51,916 bases of DNA. Source: Clostridia bacterium (lineage in GTDB: Bacteria; CBDUZB01; JAGLHV01). Made by a program: the position numbers and the translations under genes. The notes beneath the pieces were generated by a model that saw only the letters and a list, made by a program, of their open reading frames with translations, searched no databases and had not been told where the DNA came from. Positions 2,886 through 29,784 of the stretch are shown in pieces; position 1 is the stretch's first letter; each line of letters starts with the position of its first letter. Where the stretch lies: contig DAOVVV010000019.1 in the NCBI GenBank assembly GCA_030637025.1, positions 1 through 51,916 of the forward strand, written 5' to 3'.

Positions 2886-5072
2886 TTAACCTTGCTGATC
2901 AAGCATCCTCTGGGATGGTTTTATATCTTCCAACCGTAACCGGACAGATTCTCTTGACTGCCATTTGTTTATTTCTAATTGAAAAGCAAAATCTACAAAA
3001 TCCACCTGAGAAAATAGTTCTTTTCTAAAACCCATTTTCCAGCCTACAGCATCTACTTTACTTCCATTATTTCCTATTTTTATAAACAGATGTTCTTTAG
3101 TAGTTTTAGTCACGGAACACTTTTTTATGGAAATATCTTCTATGGCAAAGAGTGGAGATGGATTACTCGTTCCATAGGGACCCAATTGATCTAAATCCTG
3201 CATAAACTTATGATTGGCTAAAGATATATCTATTCGGGCATCTATTTCCAACTTAGGTATCAATGTCTTTTGATTAATTTCTTTATGAGCAATTTTTTTA
3301 ATTTTTTCCGTAAATTTTGTAATATTCTCTACGGTAATAGTCAATCCGGCTGCTTTTTTATGTCCACCGTAACGAATTAATAAATCACTACATTTTGCAA
3401 AAGCCCAGGTTAAATCAAAAGAATCTATACTTCGAGCCGAACCCCTCGCTTCTTTTCCATCTATACAAAGAATAATTATGGGCCTCTTATACTCTGCGAA
3501 AAGCCGGGAAGAAATAATACTTATTATTCCGTGTTCTAACTTACTGGTACTAATTATAAGAATTTTATCCTTATCCAAATCACACTGTTGTGATAAAAGG
3601 CCTTTAACCCGAACTAAACTTTGCTTTTGTAATTCTTTTCTTTGTTGATTTAAATCATTAATCTGAGTTACTAAAGCTTGTACTTCTTCTGGTTTATTAC
3701 TTAAAATTAACTCAACCCCCAAATACCCTTTTCCCATTCTTCCCGCTGCATTTAAAAAAGGTGCAATAAGCCAGTTAATCTCCTCAATAGTAAGAATATC
3801 ATCAATATTACATTTTTTAAAAATTGCTTTTAAACCTTTTCTCTTGGTATCCCTCATTTTTTTTAATCCATATTTAACAATAATTCTATTTTCATCAATT
3901 AAAGGCATATGATCAGCAACAAGCCCTAAAGTAACCAAATCTATATACTCCTTGATAAAATAATTCATCTTGAAGTCGGATAGGGCAAAAAGTTTATAGA
4001 AAATTCCGGCTGTGGATAAAGCCTCTGTTAGCCGGTTATGTTCATCCAGCATACTATGCTTTTGAATATCTGTTTTTAAACTATTATCTATTATTTTTTC
4101 CGGACTAAAAATTAAATTATCTAATTTCAGTTGTGGATGAGCATAACTCATTGTCAAAACATCCAATAACGAATTTTTCATTTCTTTCCCTAAGATTTCT
4201 TTAATCTGTTCTTTCAAGAAACAAAAACCTTCTTTAGCATTATAGACAATCAATGTCTTTTCTTTTATAAAATCCAAAAAATCTTCTAACGTTTTTTTTA
4301 AAGAAATTTTATCCGGCTCACATTTCCTATTAAATGTATCTATTACTAATCCATTTTTTAATTTTACCGCTCCTATTTCCAACCCCTCTTCTTTTACTGT
4401 TATTGCTACTAATTCTTTATTATAGTACCTTCCATTGGAATATAAAAAAGCCTGACAAAGTTTAAAAGCAACCGTTGATCCGGCTATTGATTTAAAAGGA
4501 TACGCTGAATCTTCTCTTTTGGGATTTACTATGGCTAAAGCATCCGGAGGTAACATCTCTAAGGGTTGATGATGATCAGTTATTATAACTTCCATTCCTA
4601 AACTTTTAGCATAGGTAATTTCTTCTATTGCACTTATTCCACAATCTACTGTAATAATTAATTTAACTCCTTTTTGGTAATATTGCTTTAAAATATCATT
4701 AAAAATTCCGTATCCTTCTTCTGCCGGTATATGGTAAACTGTTTCTCCTCCTAAATTATCAATAAATTCTTTTACTATTGCTACACTGGTTATCCCATCT
4801 ACATCCCGATCCCCATAAATAAGTATTTTTTCTTTATTTTCTATAGCTTGCTTTATTCTTTTCACCGCTTTTTCTATATCCGGTAATAAAAAAGGAGAAT
4901 ATATGTCTAAAATGTTAGGTTTAAGAAAATCATTAGCTTCTTTTACTGTTTTTACTCCTCGATTTACCAAAATGCGGGCAATAACCGGAGAAACATTTAA
5001 CTTGGAGGAAAATTTTTCTACTAATTTTTTATCCGGATTTTTTAAGACCCATTTTTTTATTATCAAATTCAC
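2886..5072 (-). CDS. recJ: ssDNA exonuclease RecJ with an inserted degenerate DEDDh-like domain
   Basis: YGDRDVDG, ITVDCG, DHH, ADHMPL, RGSARS, GGH and C-terminal OB region; about 145 aa insertion. Confidence 0.93.
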   Translation of the reverse strand: MNLIIKKWVLKNPDKKLVEKFSSKLNVSPVIARILVNRGVKTVKEANDFLKPNILDIYSPFLLPDIEKAVKRIKQAIENKEKILIYGDRDVDGITSVAIVKEFIDNLGGETVYHIPAEEGYGIFNDILKQYYQKGVKLIITVDCGISAIEEITYAKSLGMEVIITDHHQPLEMLPPDALAIVNPKREDSAYPFKSIAGSTVAFKLCQAFLYSNGRYYNKELVAITVKEEGLEIGAVKLKNGLVIDTFNRKCEPDKISLKKTLEDFLDFIKEKTLIVYNAKEGFCFLKEQIKEILGKEMKNSLLDVLTMSYAHPQLKLDNLIFSPEKIIDNSLKTDIQKHSMLDEHNRLTEALSTAGIFYKLFALSDFKMNYFIKEYIDLVTLGLVADHMPLIDENRIIVKYGLKKMRDTKRKGLKAIFKKCNIDDILTIEEINWLIAPFLNAAGRMGKGYLGVELILSNKPEEVQALVTQINDLNQQRKELQKQSLVRVKGLLSQQCDLDKDKILIISTSKLEHGIISIISSRLFAEYKRPIIILCIDGKEARGSARSIDSFDLTWAFAKCSDLLIRYGGHKKAAGLTITVENITKFTEKIKKIAHKEINQKTLIPKLEIDARIDISLANHKFMQDLDQLGPYGTSNPSPLFAIEDISIKKCSVTKTTKEHLFIKIGNNGSKVDAVGWKMGFRKELFSQVDFVDFAFQLEINKWQSRESVRLRLEDIKPSQRMLDQQG

Positions 5073-10778: not shown

Positions 10779-13046
10779 TTATTTTTTATGACTTACTAAA
10801 ACAATATCTAAAACCAGATTCAAAAATCTAAATTGTTTGCCTATATCTGCGAAAGGAACAAATTGTAAAGAAATTTTAGCATCGCTCAAAAATGCGTTTA
10901 AGCCGGTAGAAAACTCCGCCTCTTTTAATTCTTTACCCTTTGGCGGACCTAAAACTATAACAATTTTTAACCCGGCTTTTTTACATAAATCAACAAAAAA
11001 CTTATATTCTACCTTTTCATAAGGTATATATTCTTTTTCAAATACTGCTTTTAATTGAAATTTTAATTTATGCTTTTCAATAACACTTTCGAACTCCTTT
11101 TTTATTTTTTTTAATTCTTCTTCATGCTCCTGAGGATAAAAATAACCTACTTTAACTACTTTAACAGTTTTACCGTTTGTAGTTACTTCCTCTATAGTTG
11201 CTTTTTGTGTAGAATAAATTTCTTCTACTAAAGAAACTTTTTCTATCGGTTTTTCCTCTATTGTTTTTTCCTCTTTTTCCTCAGGCTTTTCCTCAGGCTT
11301 TTTCTCAGGCTTTTTCTCAGGCTTTTTCTCAGGCTTTTTCTCAGGCTTTTCCTCAGGCTTTTCCTCAGGCTTTTTCTCAGGCTTTTCCTCAGGCTTTTCC
11401 TCAGGCTTTTCCTCGTATTTTTGTTCCGGTTCTCTTCTTTTATCCTTAAAACTAAACACTTCTCTCTCTAAAAATTCTTCCGCTCTCTTTTTTTCTTTTT
11501 CTTCGATTGATTTTTCCTTTATTTCTGTTTTTTGCTTTCCTTCTTCTGGACTCTCCTTTTCAGAAGGAAGAAGTTCTTCCAACAAAGTTTTTATCGTTTC
11601 CAAATTTACTTCCTGTTTAGTAAGCTGAACATAAGCCTCTATTCTTTTTAAAAAACCTTCTAATTCGCGAATATTAGACTTTAATCTTCCGGCAATATAA
11701 AGAAGAATATCGTCGTCCAGTTTCATGTTTTGAGCTTCTTCTTTCTTTTTTAAAATAGCTACCCGTGTCTCCAAATTAGGCGACTTAATATCCGCAGTTA
11801 ATCCCCATTCAAACCTTGATTTCAACCGCTCTTCTACATCTACTAATTTTTTGGGTGGTTTATCACTGGTAATAACTATTTGCTTTTGTTCATCATATAA
11901 AATATTAAAAGTGTGAAAAAATTCTTCCTGTGTAGATTCTGCTTCTGCTAAAAACTGAATATCATCTACCAATAAAATATCAAATTTTCTGCAATGACTT
12001 CGAAAATTCTTTACTGTTCCCTGCCGAATAGCATCGATCACATCTTCTATAAATTTTTCTGCAGTAATATACAACACTTTTAAATTTTTATTTTCCCCCC
12101 GGGCAAAATGCCCTATAGCATGTAAAAGGTGCGTTTTTCCCAAACCTACTCCACCATAAATAAATAACGGATTATAAATTTTTCCGGGGTTTTCTGCTAC
12201 AGCTAAAGCAGCCGCATGAGTAAATCGACTATTAGGGCCAACGACAAAATTATTGAAGGTATACCTCTGATTTAATTTTACTTCTCCAAAAAGTTTTTCG
12301 CTCTCTTCTTTTTCTTTTTCACTATTTTGATTTACTTCAACATCTAATAAATTTTTTTCTCTTAAAAGATCCTCTATTTCCTCACTTCTTTGAGGTGTCC
12401 CGGTTTTTTGTTTGACTTTTTTAGTTTGTTCTAATAAAAAGTCCTCGTCTATTTCTTCTAGTTCCTTTTGCTCCTTCACTTTTTCTTTTACTTTTTCTTT
12501 TACTTTTTCTTTCACTTCTTCTTTTATTTCTTCTTTTATTTCTTCTTTTACTTCCTCTTTTACTTCCTCTTTTACTTCCTCTTTTACTTCCTCTTTTATT
12601 TCTTCTTTTATTTCTTCTTTTGCTTCCTCTTTTACTTCCCCTTTTACTTCCTCTTTTATCTCTTCTTTTGCTTTCTCTTTTACCCCTTCTTTTTTGATTG
12701 TCTTTTTTTCATAATTTACTATATTTTCTAAAATATATTCCAACGATGGGGTAGTTTCTGTTTCAGCAGAATTTTCTACACCTTCTTTATTTTCTTTTTC
12801 CTTAGACTTCATAGGACAAATTTTTTGTAAAGTGTTTTCTATTCTCCCCTTTTCTTCCTTATTTACATTATAAACATAGAAAACCCAATTAAACAATTTA
12901 CTTATTGGAACAAAGGATTTACCACAATCTTTACCAACTTTCTTTATTAAATCGAAAAGATCCTCTTCATTTCCATCTATTCTTATCTTATATCTGCGGG
13001 CATCTTTTTCACATGGAGCATAAATAAACTCCCATTTTTTAATCAT
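10779..13046 (-). CDS. DnaA-like AAA+ ATPase lacking domain IV, with repeat linkers and unrecognised N- and C-terminal domains
   Basis: YTFNNFVVG, NPLFIYGGVGLGKTHL, DDIQFL, QEEFFHTFN, RLKSRFEWG, NIRELEG; no RQIAMYL/GGRDHTTV helix-turn-helix. Confidence 0.85.
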   Translation of the reverse strand: MIKKWEFIYAPCEKDARRYKIRIDGNEEDLFDLIKKVGKDCGKSFVPISKLFNWVFYVYNVNKEEKGRIENTLQKICPMKSKEKENKEGVENSAETETTPSLEYILENIVNYEKKTIKKEGVKEKAKEEIKEEVKGEVKEEAKEEIKEEIKEEVKEEVKEEVKEEVKEEIKEEIKEEVKEKVKEKVKEKVKEQKELEEIDEDFLLEQTKKVKQKTGTPQRSEEIEDLLREKNLLDVEVNQNSEKEKEESEKLFGEVKLNQRYTFNNFVVGPNSRFTHAAALAVAENPGKIYNPLFIYGGVGLGKTHLLHAIGHFARGENKNLKVLYITAEKFIEDVIDAIRQGTVKNFRSHCRKFDILLVDDIQFLAEAESTQEEFFHTFNILYDEQKQIVITSDKPPKKLVDVEERLKSRFEWGLTADIKSPNLETRVAILKKKEEAQNMKLDDDILLYIAGRLKSNIRELEGFLKRIEAYVQLTKQEVNLETIKTLLEELLPSEKESPEEGKQKTEIKEKSIEEKEKKRAEEFLEREVFSFKDKRREPEQKYEEKPEEKPEEKPEKKPEEKPEEKPEKKPEKKPEKKPEKKPEEKPEEKEEKTIEEKPIEKVSLVEEIYSTQKATIEEVTTNGKTVKVVKVGYFYPQEHEEELKKIKKEFESVIEKHKLKFQLKAVFEKEYIPYEKVEYKFFVDLCKKAGLKIVIVLGPPKGKELKEAEFSTGLNAFLSDAKISLQFVPFADIGKQFRFLNLVLDIVLVSHKK
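11275..11414. repeat. 12-bp tandem repeat TTTT(C/T)CTCAGGC x11, encoding E(E/K)KP
   Basis: TCAGGC recurs every 12 nt from 11281 to 11401. Confidence 0.95.
12471..12692. repeat. Degenerate 12-bp tandem repeat, about 18 copies, encoding KE(E/K)(V/I/A)
   Basis: TTTTACTTCCTC-like units; protein reads KEEVKEEVKEEI... Confidence 0.9.
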
Positions 13047-13074: not shown

Positions 13075-13473
13075 TTAAGCTTTATTTTCTTCCTTAACAA
13101 ATTTTTCATATTTTTGAGCATCTAATAACAAATCTATTTCTGCCCTGTCCTTTATTTTTAATTTTATCACCCACCCTGCCTGATAAACACTTGTATTTAT
13201 TATCCCGGGATTATCCGCCAGAGAAAAATTAACATCAATTATTTCACCACTTAATGGACTAATCAAGTCGGAAACTGCCTTAGCTGATTCTATAATTCCA
13301 AAACTATCTCCCTTTTTTAAACCTTTCCCTGTTTGGGGTAATTCTACAAAAATTACTTCTCCCATTAGTTTTTGAGCATACTCACTAATACCTATTATCC
13401 CTAAATCTCCCTCAATTTTCACCCAACTATGTTCCGGAGAATATTTCAGTTCTTGAGGAAATTTTTTTTCCAT
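13075..13473 (-). CDS. gcvH: Glycine cleavage system H / lipoyl-carrier protein
   Basis: YSPEHSWV, GISEYAQ, ESAKAVSDL (lipoyl Lys), SPLSGEI. Confidence 0.92.
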   Translation of the reverse strand: MEKKFPQELKYSPEHSWVKIEGDLGIIGISEYAQKLMGEVIFVELPQTGKGLKKGDSFGIIESAKAVSDLISPLSGEIIDVNFSLADNPGIINTSVYQAGWVIKLKIKDRAEIDLLLDAQKYEKFVKEENKA

Positions 13474-13486
13474 TTTTACTCTCCTT

Positions 13487-14563
13487 TTAATTTTCCCCTT
13501 TAGAAATCCCTCTCATTTTTAACATTACATTATCCGGATTAGTAGCATACTCCAGAGCATTCTCTAAAGATATCTTTTTTCCCATATATAACTGATAAAT
13601 CGCCTGATCAAAAGTTTTCATCCCATAAAATTCTCCCTGCTCCATTACTTTGTATAAATCTTTATTTTGAGCATCAAGAATAAGCTTTTTTATTAAAGAT
13701 GTCCCTATTAATATTTCAGTCGCAGGAACTACACTTTCACCATCTATCCCGGGAATCAACCTTTGCGCCACAATGCCACGCAACACATTAGCTAATTGTA
13801 TTCTAGCTTCTGTGGTATTTGCAGAAGGATAAAGACTAATTATTCGGTCGAGGGTCTGTACTGCATCCAGAGTATGAATGGTAGAAAAAACTAAATGCCC
13901 TGTCTCAGCAGCAAGGATACCTTGTCGGATGGTTTCAAAATCACGCATTTCTCCAAGAACGATGACATCCGGATCCTGCCTCAAAATATATCTTAAGGCA
14001 CTAGAAAAAGAATTGGTATCTTCCCCCACTTCTCTCTGACTAATCGTGGCTTTTTCATCCTGATGATAAAACTCAATAGGATCTTCAACCGTAATTATAT
14101 TACATGCTCTATTTTTATTAATATAATCTATCATTGTATTCATCGTTGTAGTTTTCCCTGCCCCTGTTACCCCTGTTATTAAAATTAGCCCCCTTTGTTC
14201 CTGGCATAATTTTATTAATGTCTCCATAGGTAAATTTAAGTCCTCAAACTTTTTCATTTCTAAAGGAATAACCCTTAAAGTAAGAGCGATAGACCCTTTT
14301 TGACGATAAACATTTACCCGAAAACGGGAAACCCCGGAAATAGTATGTGAAAAATCTAATTCTTTTTCCCGTTCAAAGATTTGCCTGTGCAGCGGATTCA
14401 TCAATTTATAAGCAATTTCTTCTATATGTTTAGGTGTAAATCCTTCAAAAGCAGTGGCAATTAATTTCCCATTAATTCTAACTAATGGTGAAACTCCGGC
14501 TTTAAAATGAATATCCGAAATACCTTTTTTAATCATTAATTGTAAGATTTCATTAATATCCAT
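13487..14563 (-). CDS. pilT: PilT/PilU-family type IV pilus retraction ATPase
   Basis: SDIHF, RFRVNVY, GVTGAGKTTT, TVEDPIEF, LRQDPDVI..GEMRD, AETGHLVFSTIHT. Confidence 0.9.
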   Translation of the reverse strand: MDINEILQLMIKKGISDIHFKAGVSPLVRINGKLIATAFEGFTPKHIEEIAYKLMNPLHRQIFEREKELDFSHTISGVSRFRVNVYRQKGSIALTLRVIPLEMKKFEDLNLPMETLIKLCQEQRGLILITGVTGAGKTTTMNTMIDYINKNRACNIITVEDPIEFYHQDEKATISQREVGEDTNSFSSALRYILRQDPDVIVLGEMRDFETIRQGILAAETGHLVFSTIHTLDAVQTLDRIISLYPSANTTEARIQLANVLRGIVAQRLIPGIDGESVVPATEILIGTSLIKKLILDAQNKDLYKVMEQGEFYGMKTFDQAIYQLYMGKKISLENALEYATNPDNVMLKMRGISKGEN

Positions 14564-24617: not shown

Positions 24618-25367
24618 CTATATGAAAAAAATATATTTATTCATATCAGTTTTTATAAATATAACTCCTTTTAAAGCAAAGACATACAAAATTTCAGATA
24701 CATCTGATTCTGAAAAACCGGTTTTTTTTACTATTTCATCTTTTTTGGTTTTCCCATCTATTAAAGAAATTACTTCTTTCTCTTTGTCAAAAAGAAGTCC
24801 TCTTTGAGATTTCAGCTCTTCTTTCATTGTAAAAATTAAAGATTTTTCAGCAACAATATTTTTTTTTAATATTTCCGCCTTTTTATGCCACATAATTCCT
24901 CTACTAACTAAAACATTAATATCCGCTGAAAACTGTATTTTCTCTGTTTTCTTCAAAAAACTATCATCTAAATATTCTTTTTTAAACGCGTAAACTCCCT
25001 TTCCCCACGTATATACATCGTAAACCTCTTCTAAGAGCTGACGTTTTAATACTTCTACAAATTCATTCTGTGAAAAAATTTTTTGTTGCATCAAAATTTC
25101 TTCCATCGATTTATTCGTTTTACTTTGAATTTCTTTTATTTCTTTTATTTTCTCCTCTGAAATTTTTTTAAATCCTAAAATTATTCTTTCCAGTGGTATT
25201 TTTCTTGAAGAAGAAACCCAGCATAAATCTCCTTCTCTAAAATAAAAACTTTTTTCTACTTTATTTTCTAAATTAGTGATAACTAAAAAACCTGTTTCTT
25301 TGTTTTCATAAAAAGTTTTTAAAATTTTACTCAAATCAACCGGATTTAATTTTCCCTTAATATCCAC
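24618..25367 (-). CDS. DUF4388 (PatA_N-like) domain protein with possible C-terminal wHTH
   Basis: IKGKL..VDL..IL......TG.L.I, F.F.EG, W.KG.Y.F pattern; C-terminal LIDGKT...I. Confidence 0.75.
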   Translation of the reverse strand: MDIKGKLNPVDLSKILKTFYENKETGFLVITNLENKVEKSFYFREGDLCWVSSSRKIPLERIILGFKKISEEKIKEIKEIQSKTNKSMEEILMQQKIFSQNEFVEVLKRQLLEEVYDVYTWGKGVYAFKKEYLDDSFLKKTEKIQFSADINVLVSRGIMWHKKAEILKKNIVAEKSLIFTMKEELKSQRGLLFDKEKEVISLIDGKTKKDEIVKKTGFSESDVSEILYVFALKGVIFIKTDMNKYIFFI

Positions 25368-25465: not shown

Positions 25466-26710
25466 CTACAACTTCATTTCCTGCAATTTATTAATTAGTT
25501 TAAACGCTTCCCGCAAGTTTTTTTCATCTAACAATTTTTTTACTTCATTTAACATATCCACCGCTTGTTGATTTTGTTTCTTTTCTGCTCTAGGAATTAA
25601 AAAATCTACTGTTTCTCTAATAACCCCGATTATTTCCTGCAGGTCTTTTGATTTTTTAATCTTTTCTTTAAAAATTTTTACAGCTTTTGAATGGTCTTCT
25701 TTTAGCCTGGTTTTTTCAGCATATAAATCCGTTTCCGCAAAAACTAAAATATCTTTAAGTAATTCCTTTGCCTTTGATACTGTTATTTCTCCGCCTTTTA
25801 ATGTTAGCTGAGAAATTGCAATTAACCTGTTTAAAACTCCTTCTAATTCTCTTACACTATTAGAAATATTTTGAGCCAGGAAAAAAATAACTTCATCAGA
25901 AAGTTTGATTTTGTTTTCATTTAAACTAAGTTTCTTTTTTAAAATAGCTACTCTGGTTTCCAAATCCGGGGGCTGAATATCTGTTATTATTCCCCCTGCT
26001 AACCTTGTTCTTAATCGTTCTTCAATATTTTTAAACTCTTCCGGGGGACAATCACTGGTAATTACAATCTGTTTATTCGCTTGTGATAAAGCATTGAAAG
26101 TATAAAAAAATTCTTCTTGCGCTGCTTCTTTTCCAATTAAAAACTGAATATCATCAATTAAAAAAACATCATTATTTCTGTACATATCCTGTAATTCGTC
26201 TACCGTATTGTTTTTTATTGCGTTAACTATATCTTTAACAAAACGTTCTGCATTAATATAAAATACTTTTGTTAATGGACTATTCTCAGCTAAATAATTG
26301 CCTATCGCATTTACTAAATGAGTTTTACCTAATCCCGTATGACTGTAAATAAGTAACGGATTATATTTACTCCCGGGAAATTTAGCCACTGCCACCGCTA
26401 CTGCATAGGTAAAACTATTTCCGCTACCTATTACGAAATTTTCAAACATAAATTTTTTCATTAAAGAAAGTCTTTTTTCTTTTAAGCAGGGTCTTTCACC
26501 TAAATCATATTTCTCCTCGCTTTTACCTTCAACAGGAAAAGACCTCCTTTCATATTGATAAAAAAGAACTTTCTCAATATCTTTTTTTCTACTAACAAAA
26601 GGCAAAATACAATAATCCGTTACTCTCCGTAAACCGTCAACAACTTCATCACTCACAGGATCCAACATACTTACAGCAAGGACATTATTAGATTTAGCAA
26701 TGGGAACCAT
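25466..26710 (-). CDS. DnaA-like AAA+ ATPase with N-terminal T2SSE_N/MshEN segment and no domain IV (3' part of a frameshifted gene starting at 26969)
   Basis: VPI....L.VSMLDP...VVD.L (T2SSE_N); FENFVIG, NPLLIYSHTGLGKTHL, IDDIQFL, RLRTRL, VRELEG; helical C-terminus. Confidence 0.85.
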   Translation of the reverse strand: MVPIAKSNNVLAVSMLDPVSDEVVDGLRRVTDYCILPFVSRKKDIEKVLFYQYERRSFPVEGKSEEKYDLGERPCLKEKRLSLMKKFMFENFVIGSGNSFTYAVAVAVAKFPGSKYNPLLIYSHTGLGKTHLVNAIGNYLAENSPLTKVFYINAERFVKDIVNAIKNNTVDELQDMYRNNDVFLIDDIQFLIGKEAAQEEFFYTFNALSQANKQIVITSDCPPEEFKNIEERLRTRLAGGIITDIQPPDLETRVAILKKKLSLNENKIKLSDEVIFFLAQNISNSVRELEGVLNRLIAISQLTLKGGEITVSKAKELLKDILVFAETDLYAEKTRLKEDHSKAVKIFKEKIKKSKDLQEIIGVIRETVDFLIPRAEKKQNQQAVDMLNEVKKLLDEKNLREAFKLINKLQEMKL

Positions 26711-27059: not shown

Positions 27060-27755
27060 TTATTTTGACTGTTTGGCTATTTCCTCAACTACCTTGTTTA
27101 GAGAAAAAATCAAAGACCCCAGTCTAGCCATAGGTGTTGATAAAGAAACCAGAAATAATCTACTGTTTATTTTACAAAAAGAAACAAATCCTTTTTCATC
27201 ATTTACAAACATTTGAACAATTGTGGGCCTTTTTATTTTTTTATAATCTCTATAAAAATTAAAAAAAAGTTCGGGCACAGATAAAACAGTATCGTCTTTC
27301 AATTTACCACTTAATATCCGGAAAATAATTTCCCCCTCAAAATCAACAATTATCGCTCCCAATATTTGATTATCATCCGATACTAATTGCTTTAAAATTC
27401 TTTCCATTTTTTCTCTTATCGGCAAAACTTTCTCTTTTTCTTTAACCCTTTTTTCATCAATCCTTTTTATCCCTTCCATAAAAAGTTTCTGAATACTCGT
27501 TTTTATTGTTTCCTGACTTGACTGTTCGTTTATTTTAAATTCAAATTCTCCTTTCTCCCATAATAACATTTCAAAAATAACTTCCTGCCCAATTAAATTT
27601 TTTAAGGTTGCATGAACGACTTTCCCGGATTTAAAATATATTCTCCCTGTTTGATTATTATTTATTATTTCCAGGCACCCTGCTTTCCCCGCCATTTCTA
27701 AAATTTGAATTGTATCTGTTAAATTAACATCTTCCAGCGATCCGCGCAAACTCAT
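27060..27755 (-). CDS. DUF4388 + Roadblock/LC7 fusion protein
   Basis: MSLRGSLEDVNLTDTIQ...GRIYF..G.VVHA...WEKGEFEF; C-terminal GAIIVDFEGEII...ARLG. Confidence 0.8.
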   Translation of the reverse strand: MSLRGSLEDVNLTDTIQILEMAGKAGCLEIINNNQTGRIYFKSGKVVHATLKNLIGQEVIFEMLLWEKGEFEFKINEQSSQETIKTSIQKLFMEGIKRIDEKRVKEKEKVLPIREKMERILKQLVSDDNQILGAIIVDFEGEIIFRILSGKLKDDTVLSVPELFFNFYRDYKKIKRPTIVQMFVNDEKGFVSFCKINSRLFLVSLSTPMARLGSLIFSLNKVVEEIAKQSK

Positions 27756-27797
27756 TTTCTCCTCATCTCCTTTCCTAAACAGTTCAGTTATCTATTA

Positions 27798-28382
27798 TTA
27801 TTCTATTTCGAATTTTTCAATAACCAATTTACAAATTGCTTTAATTGTGGCAAAAACCCCTTTTCCTGTAGTAGCAATAGACTCAAAAGAAGGTTTTTTA
27901 TGTATATTTATCACTTCTTCCAAATGATTAAGTGTATTTATATCGGGTAAATCCCGTTTATTATATTGTATGGCACAGGGTAAAGTGTCAAAATCCAATT
28001 TATATTCTTTTAATCTATCCAACAGTTCCTTATAGCTATTTATGTTCTCCTTTAACCGCTGTTTCTGTGAATCAACAATAAAAGCAACTCCGTCTGCACC
28101 TTTTAAAATTATTTTTCGGCTCGCTTCATAATATTCCTGTCCGGGAACGGTATAAAGATGAAATCGGGTAGTAAACCCTTTTATTTTCCCTAAATCCAAA
28201 GGAAGAAAATCAAAAAATAAAGTGCGTTCCTGATCGGTCTTTAATGAAACCATTTTCCCTTTATAGGAAGGTGCTATCGATTGGTAAATATATTCCAGAT
28301 TAGTAGTCTTTCCCCCAAAGCCAGGACCGTAATACACAATTTTGAAATTAATTTCCCGTAACGCATAATTAAAGGACGCCAT
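27798..28382 (-). CDS. mglA: MglA small Ras-like GTPase
   Basis: REINFKIVYYGPGFGGKTTNL, RTLFFDFLPL, TVPGQ, NKRDLP. Confidence 0.95.
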   Translation of the reverse strand: MASFNYALREINFKIVYYGPGFGGKTTNLEYIYQSIAPSYKGKMVSLKTDQERTLFFDFLPLDLGKIKGFTTRFHLYTVPGQEYYEASRKIILKGADGVAFIVDSQKQRLKENINSYKELLDRLKEYKLDFDTLPCAIQYNKRDLPDINTLNHLEEVINIHKKPSFESIATTGKGVFATIKAICKLVIEKFEIE

Positions 28383-28915
28383 TATTCTTCCTTTTTTTTC
28401 TGACCATCAGGAGTAAAATTAGAATCCGAATCAGAAAAAATAGTATCTATTAAATTAGTAGCATATTCCTTGAAATCCGATAACTCTATTTTCACTCTTT
28501 CTTCTTCTTTTTTCCCTTCTTTAATTAAAGAATTTGTTACCTTCCGGGATACTGATTTTGCATAAAATCTAACCTTTCCTACACTTCCAAGATTTTCAAA
28601 CACTACCACCATCATCGCAATAGAACCCAACAAAGAAATATGCACATGCCGTTTTTCTCCCTGTTGAAGAAGAATACTGAATTCCTGTTCTCCCAGAAGA
28701 AAGGCAACTTCTTTTGTCGCAGCAAAAGACCCTGCCACTAATGCCGCTAAAGCAGTAGTGTTAATAAAAGAAACATCCCCTCTATTGGTTATTAATTGCC
28801 CGTCTTTGGTAATAAGAATTATACATATCGCTTTAGTTTGAACTATAAAATCATCTAAAAATTTATTAATTTGTTCTACCTGAGATGAAAAAGTAATCAT
28901 TTTATGATTCTCCAT
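28382..28915 (-). CDS. mglB: MglB roadblock GTPase-activating protein
   Basis: LITKDGQLI, LAALVAGSFAAT..VA.LLGEQEF.IL.QQG; translationally coupled to mglA. Confidence 0.9.
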   Translation of the reverse strand: MENHKMITFSSQVEQINKFLDDFIVQTKAICIILITKDGQLITNRGDVSFINTTALAALVAGSFAATKEVAFLLGEQEFSILLQQGEKRHVHISLLGSIAMMVVVFENLGSVGKVRFYAKSVSRKVTNSLIKEGKKEEERVKIELSDFKEYATNLIDTIFSDSDSNFTPDGQKKKEE

Positions 28916-28959
28916 TGCTTGATTTTTCTCCTTTTATATAATAAAATGAACCGCTCCGT

Positions 28960-29784
28960 TTAATTCTTAATCTGTAATATTATTTTTTTTAAAACATTCT
29001 CTGCTAAATTTACTCCCGGAGAGAGTTCATTTAAAAGACAGGACTGCAAAAGCACTGCATCACATAAAATATTTATCCAAAAAGGGAAAACAATTTTATC
29101 TTTTTTATCTAAAAATTCAAAAATTTTTTCTTTTACTTTTTCAGAAAAAATTTCCTGCCCCCCCCCGGACAATTCAAGATTTTGATTAATAAATTCTTTC
29201 ATCTCCTCAAAACTAAAAGGCTCCATGTTGTATTGCTTTGTTATCTTTTTAAACTTTTCGTTTTTTTCTATCCATTTATTAATTTCCGGTAACCCTAATA
29301 AAACAAAACTAACTATCCTTCCTCCATTTTCATCTTTTAATTCCGTTAAACGAAACAGGCTAAGAAGTGTTTTTTCTCCGGCAATATTATCACTATTATC
29401 AATTATAAAAAGTGTTCGTTTCTTTTCTGTATTATATTTCTCCTCTATAAAATCGGTAATACTTTTTATTTTTGATCCTGAACTATTAACCTGCCTTACT
29501 ATTCCTTTAGAAAGTGCCTCAAAATCAGTCTGTTCACCGGTAACAATCAGCAAAGCAGCATTATAATCATCTTCCCTTAGTAACTCTCTTAAAAGTTTTA
29601 TTCCTAAAGTGCTTTTTCCTGAACCCTTCTTTCCCGTAATTGTTAGGAAAGGAACCTTAAATTGTTTTATGGTTTCTAAGATTTCTTTTTCTATTTTATA
29701 TTTTCGTTCACTTTCATAACAAAGATTTACCTCTAAACCGGTTTCAAAAGGCAATTCTTTGAATCCAAAAAAATCTTTATACAT
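28960..29784 (-). CDS. ExeA/GspA/MshM-like AAA ATPase
   Basis: N-terminal MY..FFGF.E.PF, Walker A GKKGSGKST, Walker B LFIIDN, LLGLPE. Confidence 0.8.
   Translation of the reverse strand: MYKDFFGFKELPFETGLEVNLCYESERKYKIEKEILETIKQFKVPFLTITGKKGSGKSTLGIKLLRELLREDDYNAALLIVTGEQTDFEALSKGIVRQVNSSGSKIKSITDFIEEKYNTEKKRTLFIIDNSDNIAGEKTLLSLFRLTELKDENGGRIVSFVLLGLPEINKWIEKNEKFKKITKQYNMEPFSFEEMKEFINQNLELSGGGQEIFSEKVKEKIFEFLDKKDKIVFPFWINILCDAVLLQSCLLNELSPGVNLAENVLKKIILQIKN

Follow-up and report, generated by a model that had tools for sequence, protein, structure and literature searches.

A DnaA paralogue of uncultivated bacterial phyla with a predicted Argonaute MID-like C-terminal domain

We analysed a contig of 51,916 nucleotides from an organism labelled Clostridia bacterium (GTDB lineage CBDUZB01; JAGLHV01; assembly GCA_030637025.1, contig DAOVVV010000019.1, positions 1 to 51,916 of the forward strand), hereafter the window, and focused on the gene at positions 10779..13046 of its minus strand. 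The gene encodes a DnaA-type AAA+ ATPase set between two other globular domains, the last of which is predicted to fold like the MID domain of Argonautes. Comparison of its sequence with relatives gives good support to the conclusion that it is a neofunctionalised paralogue of DnaA and not a replication initiator. In agreement with an earlier sequence-only reading of this DNA, the open reading frame (ORF) is intact: it encodes 755 aa without an internal stop and ends with the stop codon at 10779-10781. Its parts follow one another in the order N-terminal domain (N-domain), linker 1, DnaA AAA+ core, linker 2 and MID-like C-terminal domain (C-domain).

A paralogue distinct from the canonical DnaA

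The sequence-only reading had proposed that the gene is a non-initiator DnaA derivative and suggested that a canonical dnaA be looked for elsewhere in the genome. Such a gene was found. The host genome (G000; 77 contigs, 97.8% complete) encodes three proteins with the Bac_DnaA domain (PF00308): the protein studied here, the 414-aa product of a gene at 25466-26710 of the window, and a canonical DnaA of 456 aa on contig C53, which has domain IV and whose gene is followed by dnaN. Canonical DnaA with domain IV was also present in every one of the six paralogue-carrying genomes checked (the host and five others). When 44 AAA+ cores were placed in a maximum-likelihood tree, those of the 24 paralogues fell together on one side of a branch with a Shimodaira-Hasegawa-like approximate likelihood ratio (SH-aLRT) support of 98, and the canonical DnaAs of the host and of genomes G004 and G005 clustered elsewhere (91). 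This tree was built with a quick method, carries SH-aLRT support only and leaves out one row (L063) with a core of 326 residues.

The window protein had no match to the DNA-binding domain Bac_DnaA_C (PF08299) at E <= 1, a Pfam model that, as a positive control, detected the canonical DnaA on C53 with an E value of 3.7e-32. The helix-turn-helix domain IV, through which DnaA binds DnaA boxes, was thus not detected, as had been noticed from the sequence alone. Weak stand-alone matches to Bac_DnaA_C occur in frames of about 318-340 aa on contigs C26 and C6 of the host (loci L005-L007), and similar frames of about 330 aa occur in genomes G001-G004.

The surroundings of the gene do not resemble a replication origin. 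Neither dnaN nor gyrB was among the 40 window ORFs scanned with Pfam. A scan of the whole window for the DnaA-box-like word TTWTNCACA returned 15 occurrences (6.9 expected), which were scattered and formed no cluster at the gene. The absence of both replication genes and box cluster had been remarked on earlier and still stands. In addition, GC skew was negative throughout the window (1-51916, from -0.16 to -0.37), and therefore no origin-type skew switch is present. The window also displays a strong strand bias, with every annotated ORF on the minus strand.

Since a canonical dnaA-dnaN pair lies elsewhere in the genome, the paralogue cores form a separate clade, and domain I, domain IV and the residue equivalent to Lys243 of Escherichia coli DnaA have been lost (see below), the assignment of this gene as a neofunctionalised paralogue that does not initiate replication is well supported at the level of sequence. 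It is a lineage-wide, strongly conserved protein rather than a decaying duplicate.

The DnaA-type core and the loss of a lysine

DnaA domain III, consisting of the AAA+ core and its lid, spans residues 251-498 (11553..12296, minus strand). Bac_DnaA was the one strong Pfam domain of the protein, covering residues 258-418 (11793-12275, minus strand) with an E value of 1.2e-69; it was followed by a weak match to Hda_lid (E 0.075), and the core had a secondary match to IstB_IS21 (E 1.2e-10). Meanwhile, the NCBIfam DnaA equivalog model TIGR00362 scored 349.2 bits, marginally above its cut-off of 343.9, over residues 156-498. This alignment covers only profile positions 41-344 of 437, so that both ends of DnaA are missed. 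The conserved DnaA core that had been placed at 11565-12276 by eye is therefore confirmed by Pfam and TIGR00362, as AAA+ core plus lid. Its identity to the core of the host's canonical DnaA is 58%, and canonical cores of different phyla are 55-61% identical to each other.

We surveyed the functional motifs of 24 full-length relatives aligned to E. coli DnaA (from NC_000913.3). All 24 retained the Walker A Lys178, the Walker B Asp235/236, the box VII Arg281, the arginine finger Arg285 and the sensor 2 Arg334, as well as sensor 1, the AID-2 Leu290 and the hydrophobic residue of the H motif. The AID-1 Arg227 was retained in 15 of them. Meanwhile, the residue equivalent to Lys243 was gone from every relative, its place being taken by Ser (12), Ala (9), Gly (2) or Asp (1), and the preceding residue was Glu in 16 cases. 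In the window protein, the positions of E. coli Asn242-Lys243 are occupied by Glu-Ala within the segment FLAEAES (residues 365-371; 11934..11954, minus strand), where the host's canonical DnaA reads FLAGKES. The replacement of this lysine, first spotted in the single sequence, is hence a property of the whole family. Gly-Lys-Glu is kept in both the canonical DnaA and the third paralogue of the host. The position of Arg245 is Ser in the paralogue and in the host's canonical DnaA alike, which makes the lost lysine the sole basic residue of that segment in this lineage.

Passages of a published review (PMC5742627) assign ATP-dependent head-to-tail contacts to Arg285 and Arg281, describe Lys243 as needed for oligomerisation at oriC and for unwinding, and attribute single-strand binding to Val211 and Arg245. 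Judged by its aligned residues, the paralogue core keeps all that should be required for ATP binding and hydrolysis and for head-to-tail contacts of the DnaA type. The ATPase thus looks functional, and altered at one place.

The C-terminal domain is predicted to fold like an Argonaute MID domain

The C-domain comprises residues 620-755 as modelled (10782..11189, minus strand) and is structured from about residue 626. The AlphaFold2 model, made from a 27-row alignment, reached a mean predicted local distance difference test score (pLDDT) of 92.8 and displayed four successive beta-alpha units in a Rossmann-like arrangement, consistent with the alpha/beta domain of about 130 aa that had been anticipated. 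The sequence-only reading had described both terminal domains as unrecognised and pointed to structure searches as a way forward. For the C-domain, these searches gave a recognisable fold. When the model was compared by VIA-align with 48,161 PDB representatives, ranks 1 to 19 were all Argonaute or PIWI MID domains, with Z scores from 14.4 down to 10.1. The best match was MIWI (4p1z; Z 14.4, root-mean-square deviation 2.2 over 123 residues), and rank 19 was a short prokaryotic Argonaute (pAgo; Z 10.1). These matches span animals, plants, fungi, bacteria and archaea and cover 114-128 of the 136 residues. The first other fold was lumazine synthase, with Z 10.0.

Other searches pointed in the same direction. 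Foldseek returned the MID domains of human AGO2 and MIWI with TM scores of 0.60-0.75 and E values from 7e-5, with lumazine synthase rows also within its top ten. A language-model look-up of the C-domain led to clusters bearing ArgoMid and Piwi domains at low scores (0.78-0.83), a result that we treat as a lead only. Meanwhile, profile-profile comparison with hhalign, using 90 C-domain rows and a narrow set of seven MID regions from Thermus-type pAgos, gave a probability of 74% (E 2.8e-5) over 77 columns. The register of this alignment is topologically equivalent, pairing VLTPP with VLGPP and PSQIL with SLQFV. On the basis of the model, the fold of the C-domain is MID-like, and common descent with the Argonaute MID domain is likely, though not proven.

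The MID domain of Argonautes holds the 5′-phosphate of the guide in a canonical pocket formed by Tyr or Arg, Lys, Gln and Lys. In TtAgo, we take these residues to be Arg418, Lys422, Gln433 and Lys457, four identities that agree with the TtAgo sequence. According to the hhalign mapping, whose C-terminal end is weakly aligned, the residues of the window protein at these positions are Ser713, Asn717, Gln728 and Ser752. We counted the corresponding columns over the window protein and 66 relatives (n=67). Column 713 (Arg418) is Tyr in 22 and Ser in 16 of the 67. Column 717 (Lys422) is most often Thr, Ser, Leu, Ala or Gly, the five commonest residues all being non-basic. Column 728 (Gln433) is Gln in 40 and Glu in 16, and column 752 (Lys457), which lies in the weakly aligned end, is Lys or Arg in 54. 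The near-invariant residues of the C-domain are Phe636, Pro638, Lys658-His659, Lys662, Tyr673, Cys688, Pro701, Phe712, Lys737, Asn743 and Asp747. Several of these are basic, which would agree with a ligand that bears phosphate.

The N-terminal domain and the repeat linkers

The N-domain (residues 1-82; 12801..13046, minus strand) forms a beta-beta-alpha-beta-alpha sandwich that is conserved across the family. It was modelled by AlphaFold2 from a 24-row alignment with a pLDDT of 94.1, and the N-terminal domain of about 80 aa seen earlier is accordingly a folded unit. Contrary to the C-domain, it remains without a clear structural relative, so that only one of the two domains first described as unrecognised keeps that description. 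Foldseek found no match among solved structures at E <= 0.001, and the best PDB match by VIA-align was the ACT domain of aspartate kinase with Z 7.3, a level reached by many structures and at which none stands out. DnaA domain I, to which the helicase and DiaA bind, was absent among the 50 best structural matches of the N-domain, and comparison of the N-domain profile with that of DnaA domain I gave a probability of 2.1% (hhalign). A language-model look-up of the N-domain yielded no usable match. Based on the model, we consider the N-domain a generic ferredoxin/ACT-like sandwich unrelated to DnaA domain I. Among the 71 stored proteins, phmmer detected it in 24, which apart from the window protein are all long carriers of the C-domain. 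Prediction of a complex between N-domain and C-domain scored 0.00 in two runs, which counts neither for nor against an interaction.

The three globular parts are joined by repeat-containing linkers. Linker 1 (residues 83-250; 12297..12800, minus strand) is rich in Glu and Lys (55 and 36 of 168 residues), and linker 2 (approximately residues 499-619; 11190..11552, minus strand) is rich in Glu, Lys and Pro. The KEEV and EKPE repeats reported earlier were recovered by Tandem Repeats Finder as two 12-bp tandem arrays: one at 12478-12693 in linker 1 (18 copies, 86% matches, KEEV/KEEI) and one at 11275-11414 in linker 2 (11.7 copies, 96% matches, [EK]KPE). Linker 2 also contains a 15-bp repeat at 11242-11274. 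Assemblies of short reads from four public runs are interrupted at both arrays, with no contig crossing the whole gene, and the copy numbers of the repeats are accordingly those of this assembly only, without independent confirmation. Of the 12 runs found to contain this DNA, none is listed as RNA. Between close orthologues, the linkers differ in length and sequence and the three globular parts are conserved. In four of the 24 full-length relatives (P0005, P0033, P0052 and P0058), the Glu/Lys/Pro repeat of linker 2 is replaced by a zinc-ribbon-like CxxC...CxxC motif with a spacing of 16 to 18 residues and a conserved core YDRWYC, a motif that also occurs in P0025 and P0034.

Distribution of the family and ATPase-less paralogues

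A single-sequence HMMER search of 1.84 billion cluster representatives with the C-domain returned 67 matches at E <= 0.001, and in all of them the domain was C-terminal. When the 66 carriers other than the window protein were scanned with Pfam, 32 had Bac_DnaA, including 31 of the 32 that measured at least 400 aa, and the remainder were short. None of the 66 had Bac_DnaA_C. A C-domain profile detected the family in all four genomes of the window's own GTDB phylum (one genus) and in all nine of the phylum to which G005 belongs; in the phylum of G004, 166 of the 301 genomes sampled had it. These counts from three GTDB phyla indicate that the family is conserved lineage-wide in several uncultivated phyla and is no rarity of a single genome.

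The matches in the phylum of G004 fall into about 55 genomes with strong matches (E <= 1e-42, in frames of approximately 310-920 aa) and about 111 with weaker ones. Six weak-class matches were examined, and all six combined Bac_DnaA with the C-domain, with the N-domain detected in five; their cores were more divergent (E ~1e-30), and the linkers of four of the six measured 600-1150 aa. Proteins of 985-1624 aa with the same architecture occur at loci L166-L169 (genomes G023, G058, G176 and G114). In these, a linker of 600-1150 residues without any Pfam match separates the N-domain from the divergent core.

The family also includes ATPase-less paralogues of 215-634 aa, which carry the C-domain, often together with the N-domain, and have neither the AAA+ core nor any Pfam match. 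Their genes sit between the PilT-like gene described below and the DnaA-core gene in loci L011, L106, L109, L113, L115-L118, L125 and L129-L132, and at the same position in L137, L139-L145 and L160; two stand in tandem in L118, L125 and L160. At locus L048 (G005:C142, from a metagenome-assembled genome labelled Elusimicrobiota), the orthologue at 1105-2781 is split in two, a single TGA standing within the stretch that matches the DnaA core. A frameshift, an assembly error or a disrupted gene may account for this split.

A PilT-like ATPase in a conserved neighbourhood

The sequence-only reading had noted that the gene follows pilT and gcvH, and this is indeed the case. A PilT-like ATPase of 358 aa, identified by Pfam and by its position in a tree, is encoded two genes upstream (13487..14563, minus strand), and gcvH lies between it and the gene (13075-13473, minus strand). 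The gaps are of 13 bp between pilT and gcvH and 28 bp between gcvH and the gene. Following the direction of transcription, the window displays rpiB, pilT, gcvH, the gene, a split transketolase gene, a gene for a GAF-GGDEF protein, two nucleoside phosphorylase genes and recJ. From rpiB to recJ, these genes share one strand and are separated by short gaps.

We compared the neighbourhoods of 66 metagenome and five genome loci, as had been suggested for the synteny with pilT. Upstream, the common order was tpiA, a pduL-like gene, rpiB, genes for a TPR protein and a lipoprotein-like ORF, a deoC-like aldolase gene and the gene of the PilT-like ATPase, a hexameric type of enzyme. The PilT-like gene was often followed by one or two genes with N- and/or C-domain and no ATPase, and then by the DnaA-core gene. 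On the downstream side, the relatives had genes for sensor kinases or GGDEF proteins, transketolase, or recJ accompanied by genes for a purine nucleoside phosphorylase and a PfkB kinase. In the 43 loci whose upstream sequence reaches at least 2.6 kb, the PilT-like ATPase was found within three genes upstream in 28, and an ATPase-less paralogue with N- and/or C-domain within two genes upstream in 22. In the window, recJ is located at 2889-5072 (minus strand), 5.7 kb downstream of the gene. It lies directly downstream of the gene in L113, L115, L116, L126 and L129, and the RecJ of L116 has an additional RNase_T-type exonuclease domain (E 2.5e-12).

The PilT-like proteins encoded upstream of the family, 30 in number and including that of the window, make up a clade of their own in the PilT tree (starred; support 99), which excludes the host's other two PilTs, one belonging to its type IV pilus operon and the other being a third copy; the outgroup of this tree consisted of two rows only. 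The host has three PilT-like genes in total, and one type IV pilus cluster and two Tad-like clusters lie elsewhere in its genome. No other pilus gene was found among the window ORFs by Pfam.

The second DnaA-core gene of the window lies about 12 kb from the main one, at 25466-26710 on the minus strand, and encodes a Bac_DnaA protein of 414 aa. The sequence-only reading had seen in it a fusion to MshEN and had suggested, from the two genes together, that this lineage reuses DnaA cores beside pilus-related genes. The DnaA-core gene is real; its MshEN-like N-terminus is weak (E 6e-4; 20.1 bits, below the Pfam cut-off of 23.1). The product keeps Gly-Lys-Glu and has a helical tail and no domain IV; its branch in the core tree is long. 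The neighbours of the gene (24618-25367 and 27060-29784) are two DUF4388/PATAN genes, a Roadblock/LC7 gene and an AAA_22 gene, so that the locus is more reminiscent of a module for polarity or of small-GTPase type than of a pilus locus. The suggested association with pilus genes therefore holds in part: it agrees with the recurrent PilT-like neighbour of the main family, and it is weakened by the separate clade formed by these PilTs, by the lack of another pilus gene in the window and by the PATAN and Roadblock/LC7 setting of the second core.

Proposed role and alternative explanations

Based on these findings, we postulate, as the reading that we hold to be fairly probable, that the protein is a repurposed, non-initiator oligomeriser of the DnaA type, driven by ATP and equipped with a MID-like head. 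With domain I, domain IV and the lysine, it has given up all that makes DnaA a factor for helicase recruitment and origin-specific unwinding, and in place of the lost domains it carries two globular heads on long, disordered Lys/Glu/Pro linkers of variable length. ATP binding would lead to DnaA-like self-assembly and thereby cluster many copies of both heads. The MID-like head may hold a phosphate-bearing ligand, such as a nucleotide or the end of a nucleic acid, in a pocket that would be constructed otherwise than the 5′-phosphate pocket of canonical Argonautes. Rather than unwinding origins, the module would serve some conserved process of a housekeeping kind, in which the PilT-like ATPase and the ATPase-less paralogues would be its partners. 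A bolder version of this proposal, which we regard as quite unlikely, is that the MID fold serves outside Argonautes as the ligand head of a DnaA-type, ATP-driven filament former that, with a dedicated PilT-like motor and the ATPase-less paralogues, would constitute an undescribed housekeeping machine of several uncultivated phyla. This machine would detect either the ends of nucleic acids or a nucleotide signal in a guide-independent manner. Possible roles of such a machine would be the handling of single-stranded DNA ends, recJ being a recurrent neighbour, or the gating of replication through DnaA.

Several observations weigh against this proposal. Those that concern the head are that the structure behind the MID assignment is a predicted one; that the Pfam model ArgoMid (PF16487) matched none of 27 C-domain sequences at E <= 10; that a PDB profile search of the C-domain gave chance-level results only (mevalonate diphosphate decarboxylase, E 0.3); that the C-domain profile reached an hhalign probability of only 1.7% against the single TtAgo sequence; and that PIWI (PF02171) was found in none of the five genomes searched (G000-G004), although control genomes gave matches. 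Moreover, the 5′-phosphate pocket appears not to be canonical as a set and is possibly kept in part, as far as a low-confidence alignment allows. Regarding the partners, many of the loci are near-duplicates or kin, so that the locus counts overstate independence. In the window, pilT is separated from the gene by gcvH and not by an ATPase-less paralogue, and the C-domain profile found no second C-domain gene in the host genome. The neighbours are mostly housekeeping genes of deeply conserved order (tpiA, rpiB, deoC, tkt and recJ), and adjacency to pilT may be inherited synteny rather than a functional link. Finally, the slow evolution of the core and the retained DnaA-DnaA contact residues fit co-assembly with DnaA equally well.

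This last point is the basis of a different explanation, in which the protein regulates initiation through the canonical DnaA, either by docking on DnaA-ATP in an Hda-like manner or by capping or poisoning the oligomer, with the two heads coupling the control of DnaA to a cellular signal. Without domain I, domain IV and Lys243, it would be unable to support unwinding itself, and Lys243 is given as required for oriC oligomerisation and unwinding in the passages of PMC5742627 mentioned above. A regulator of this kind would agree with a core whose identity to that of the host DnaA (58%) is on a par with the identity between DnaAs from different phyla, with the short stem branch of the family (0.18), with the presence of the arginine finger, box VII Arg and AID-2 Leu in all 24 relatives and of the AID-1 Arg in 15, and with the coexistence of canonical DnaA in six of six genomes. 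We nevertheless consider it somewhat unlikely. The Hda model TIGR03420 scored 115.7 bits, far from its cut-off of 194.8, and no clamp-binding-type motif occurred at a conserved place outside the AAA+ fold in the 24 relatives, as judged with a loose pattern that divergent motifs could escape. Replication genes do not accompany the family, whose partners are the PilT-like ATPase and the ATPase-less paralogues. Furthermore, the core has drifted much further (Bac_DnaA E ~1e-30) in the branch whose linkers measure 600-1150 aa, which speaks against this explanation because such drift is unexpected in a core that must fit DnaA.

As an alternative to a MID-like head, the C-domain might be a generic flavodoxin- or Rossmann-like module (receiver-like, or binding a sugar or cofactor, for example) that resembles MID through convergence or an ancient shared fold, a resemblance that would then say nothing about nucleic acids. 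Lumazine synthase, MoaB/MogA-type proteins, receiver domains and LacI/PBP lobes score Z 8.5-10 against the model, lumazine synthase is within the Foldseek top ten, and the failure of ArgoMid at sequence level and the pocket residues not conserved as a set point the same way. This is very unlikely in our view: the 19 top ranks are all MID domains of eukaryotic, bacterial and archaeal origin, up to about 4 Z above the next fold (14.4 vs 10.0), the language-model look-up indicates ArgoMid independently of the fold search, and the hhalign match (74%) is in a topologically equivalent register. As for the gene being after all a true initiator, whether for the chromosome or for another replicon, with the C-domain substituting for domain IV in finding the origin, the TIGR00362 score above cut-off (349.2 vs 343.9) and the name "chromosomal replication initiator protein DnaA" given by NCBI to a relative are compatible with it. 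The canonical dnaA-dnaN pair, the loss of domain I, domain IV and Lys243, the lack of a DnaA-box cluster, the uniformly negative GC skew and the position of the gene within a chromosomal housekeeping cluster conserved across phyla make this disfavoured explanation extremely unlikely.

Significance and comparison with known systems

These findings have implications for the understanding of both protein families. In the repurposed oligomeriser that we propose, the ATPase module of DnaA would have been recruited to a task different from the firing of origins. Meanwhile, the fusion of an Argonaute-MID-like domain to an AAA+ ATPase, in genomes where no PIWI was found, is a wholly new setting for such a domain and bears on the origin of the MID fold and on its range of ligands. 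The family is a compact and testable system, made up of an ATPase, a pair of small domains and a PilT-like partner. No description of a DnaA-MID fusion, or of a DnaA paralogue with this architecture, was found in the full-text literature searched, a collection that excludes most subscription journals as well as some 1.7 million articles of PMC, and the passages of a review on pAgos that were consulted (PMC6279821) mention no such fusion.

There is also a practical consequence. The NCBI DnaA model names this protein DnaA, which entails a risk of mis-annotation. Since the protein passes TIGR00362 and a relative already bears the name, pipelines that find origins or rotate genomes by "dnaA" can take the wrong gene in these phyla. 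In the part of a 2026 preprint on Omnitrophota that describes genome rotation, for example, dnaA is identified through database names.

The paralogue can be compared with four known systems. With DnaA (PF00308 and PF08299, TIGR00362), it shares a complete domain III, the catalytic and oligomerisation residues and 58% identity of the core. It differs in the lack of domain I, domain IV and Lys243, in its location away from dnaN, in its foreign terminal domains and repeat linkers, and in its separate clade. Hda and HdaA inactivate DnaA-ATP and have an N-terminal motif that binds the sliding clamp. Like them, the window protein is a DnaA-type AAA+ paralogue without a DNA-binding domain that coexists with DnaA, and it has a faint Hda_lid match (E 0.075). 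Unlike them, it has extra N- and C-terminal domains and is three times as long, its core groups with DnaA-like cores, and all Hda models score far below their cut-offs, TIGR03420 (115.7 vs 194.8 bits) being the best of them.

The resemblance to DnaC and IstB consists in membership of the same initiator/loader clade of AAA+ proteins, as reflected by the IstB_IS21 match (E 1.2e-10); this score is far weaker than that of DnaA, and neither a transposase nor a helicase context accompanies the gene. Finally, the C-domain resembles the Argonaute MID domain in the Rossmann-like succession of four beta-alpha units predicted over almost its whole length, with a moderate profile-profile signal. It differs from Argonautes in that neither PIWI nor PAZ accompanies it and the pocket is not kept as a set, and in that it is fused to an AAA+ ATPase.

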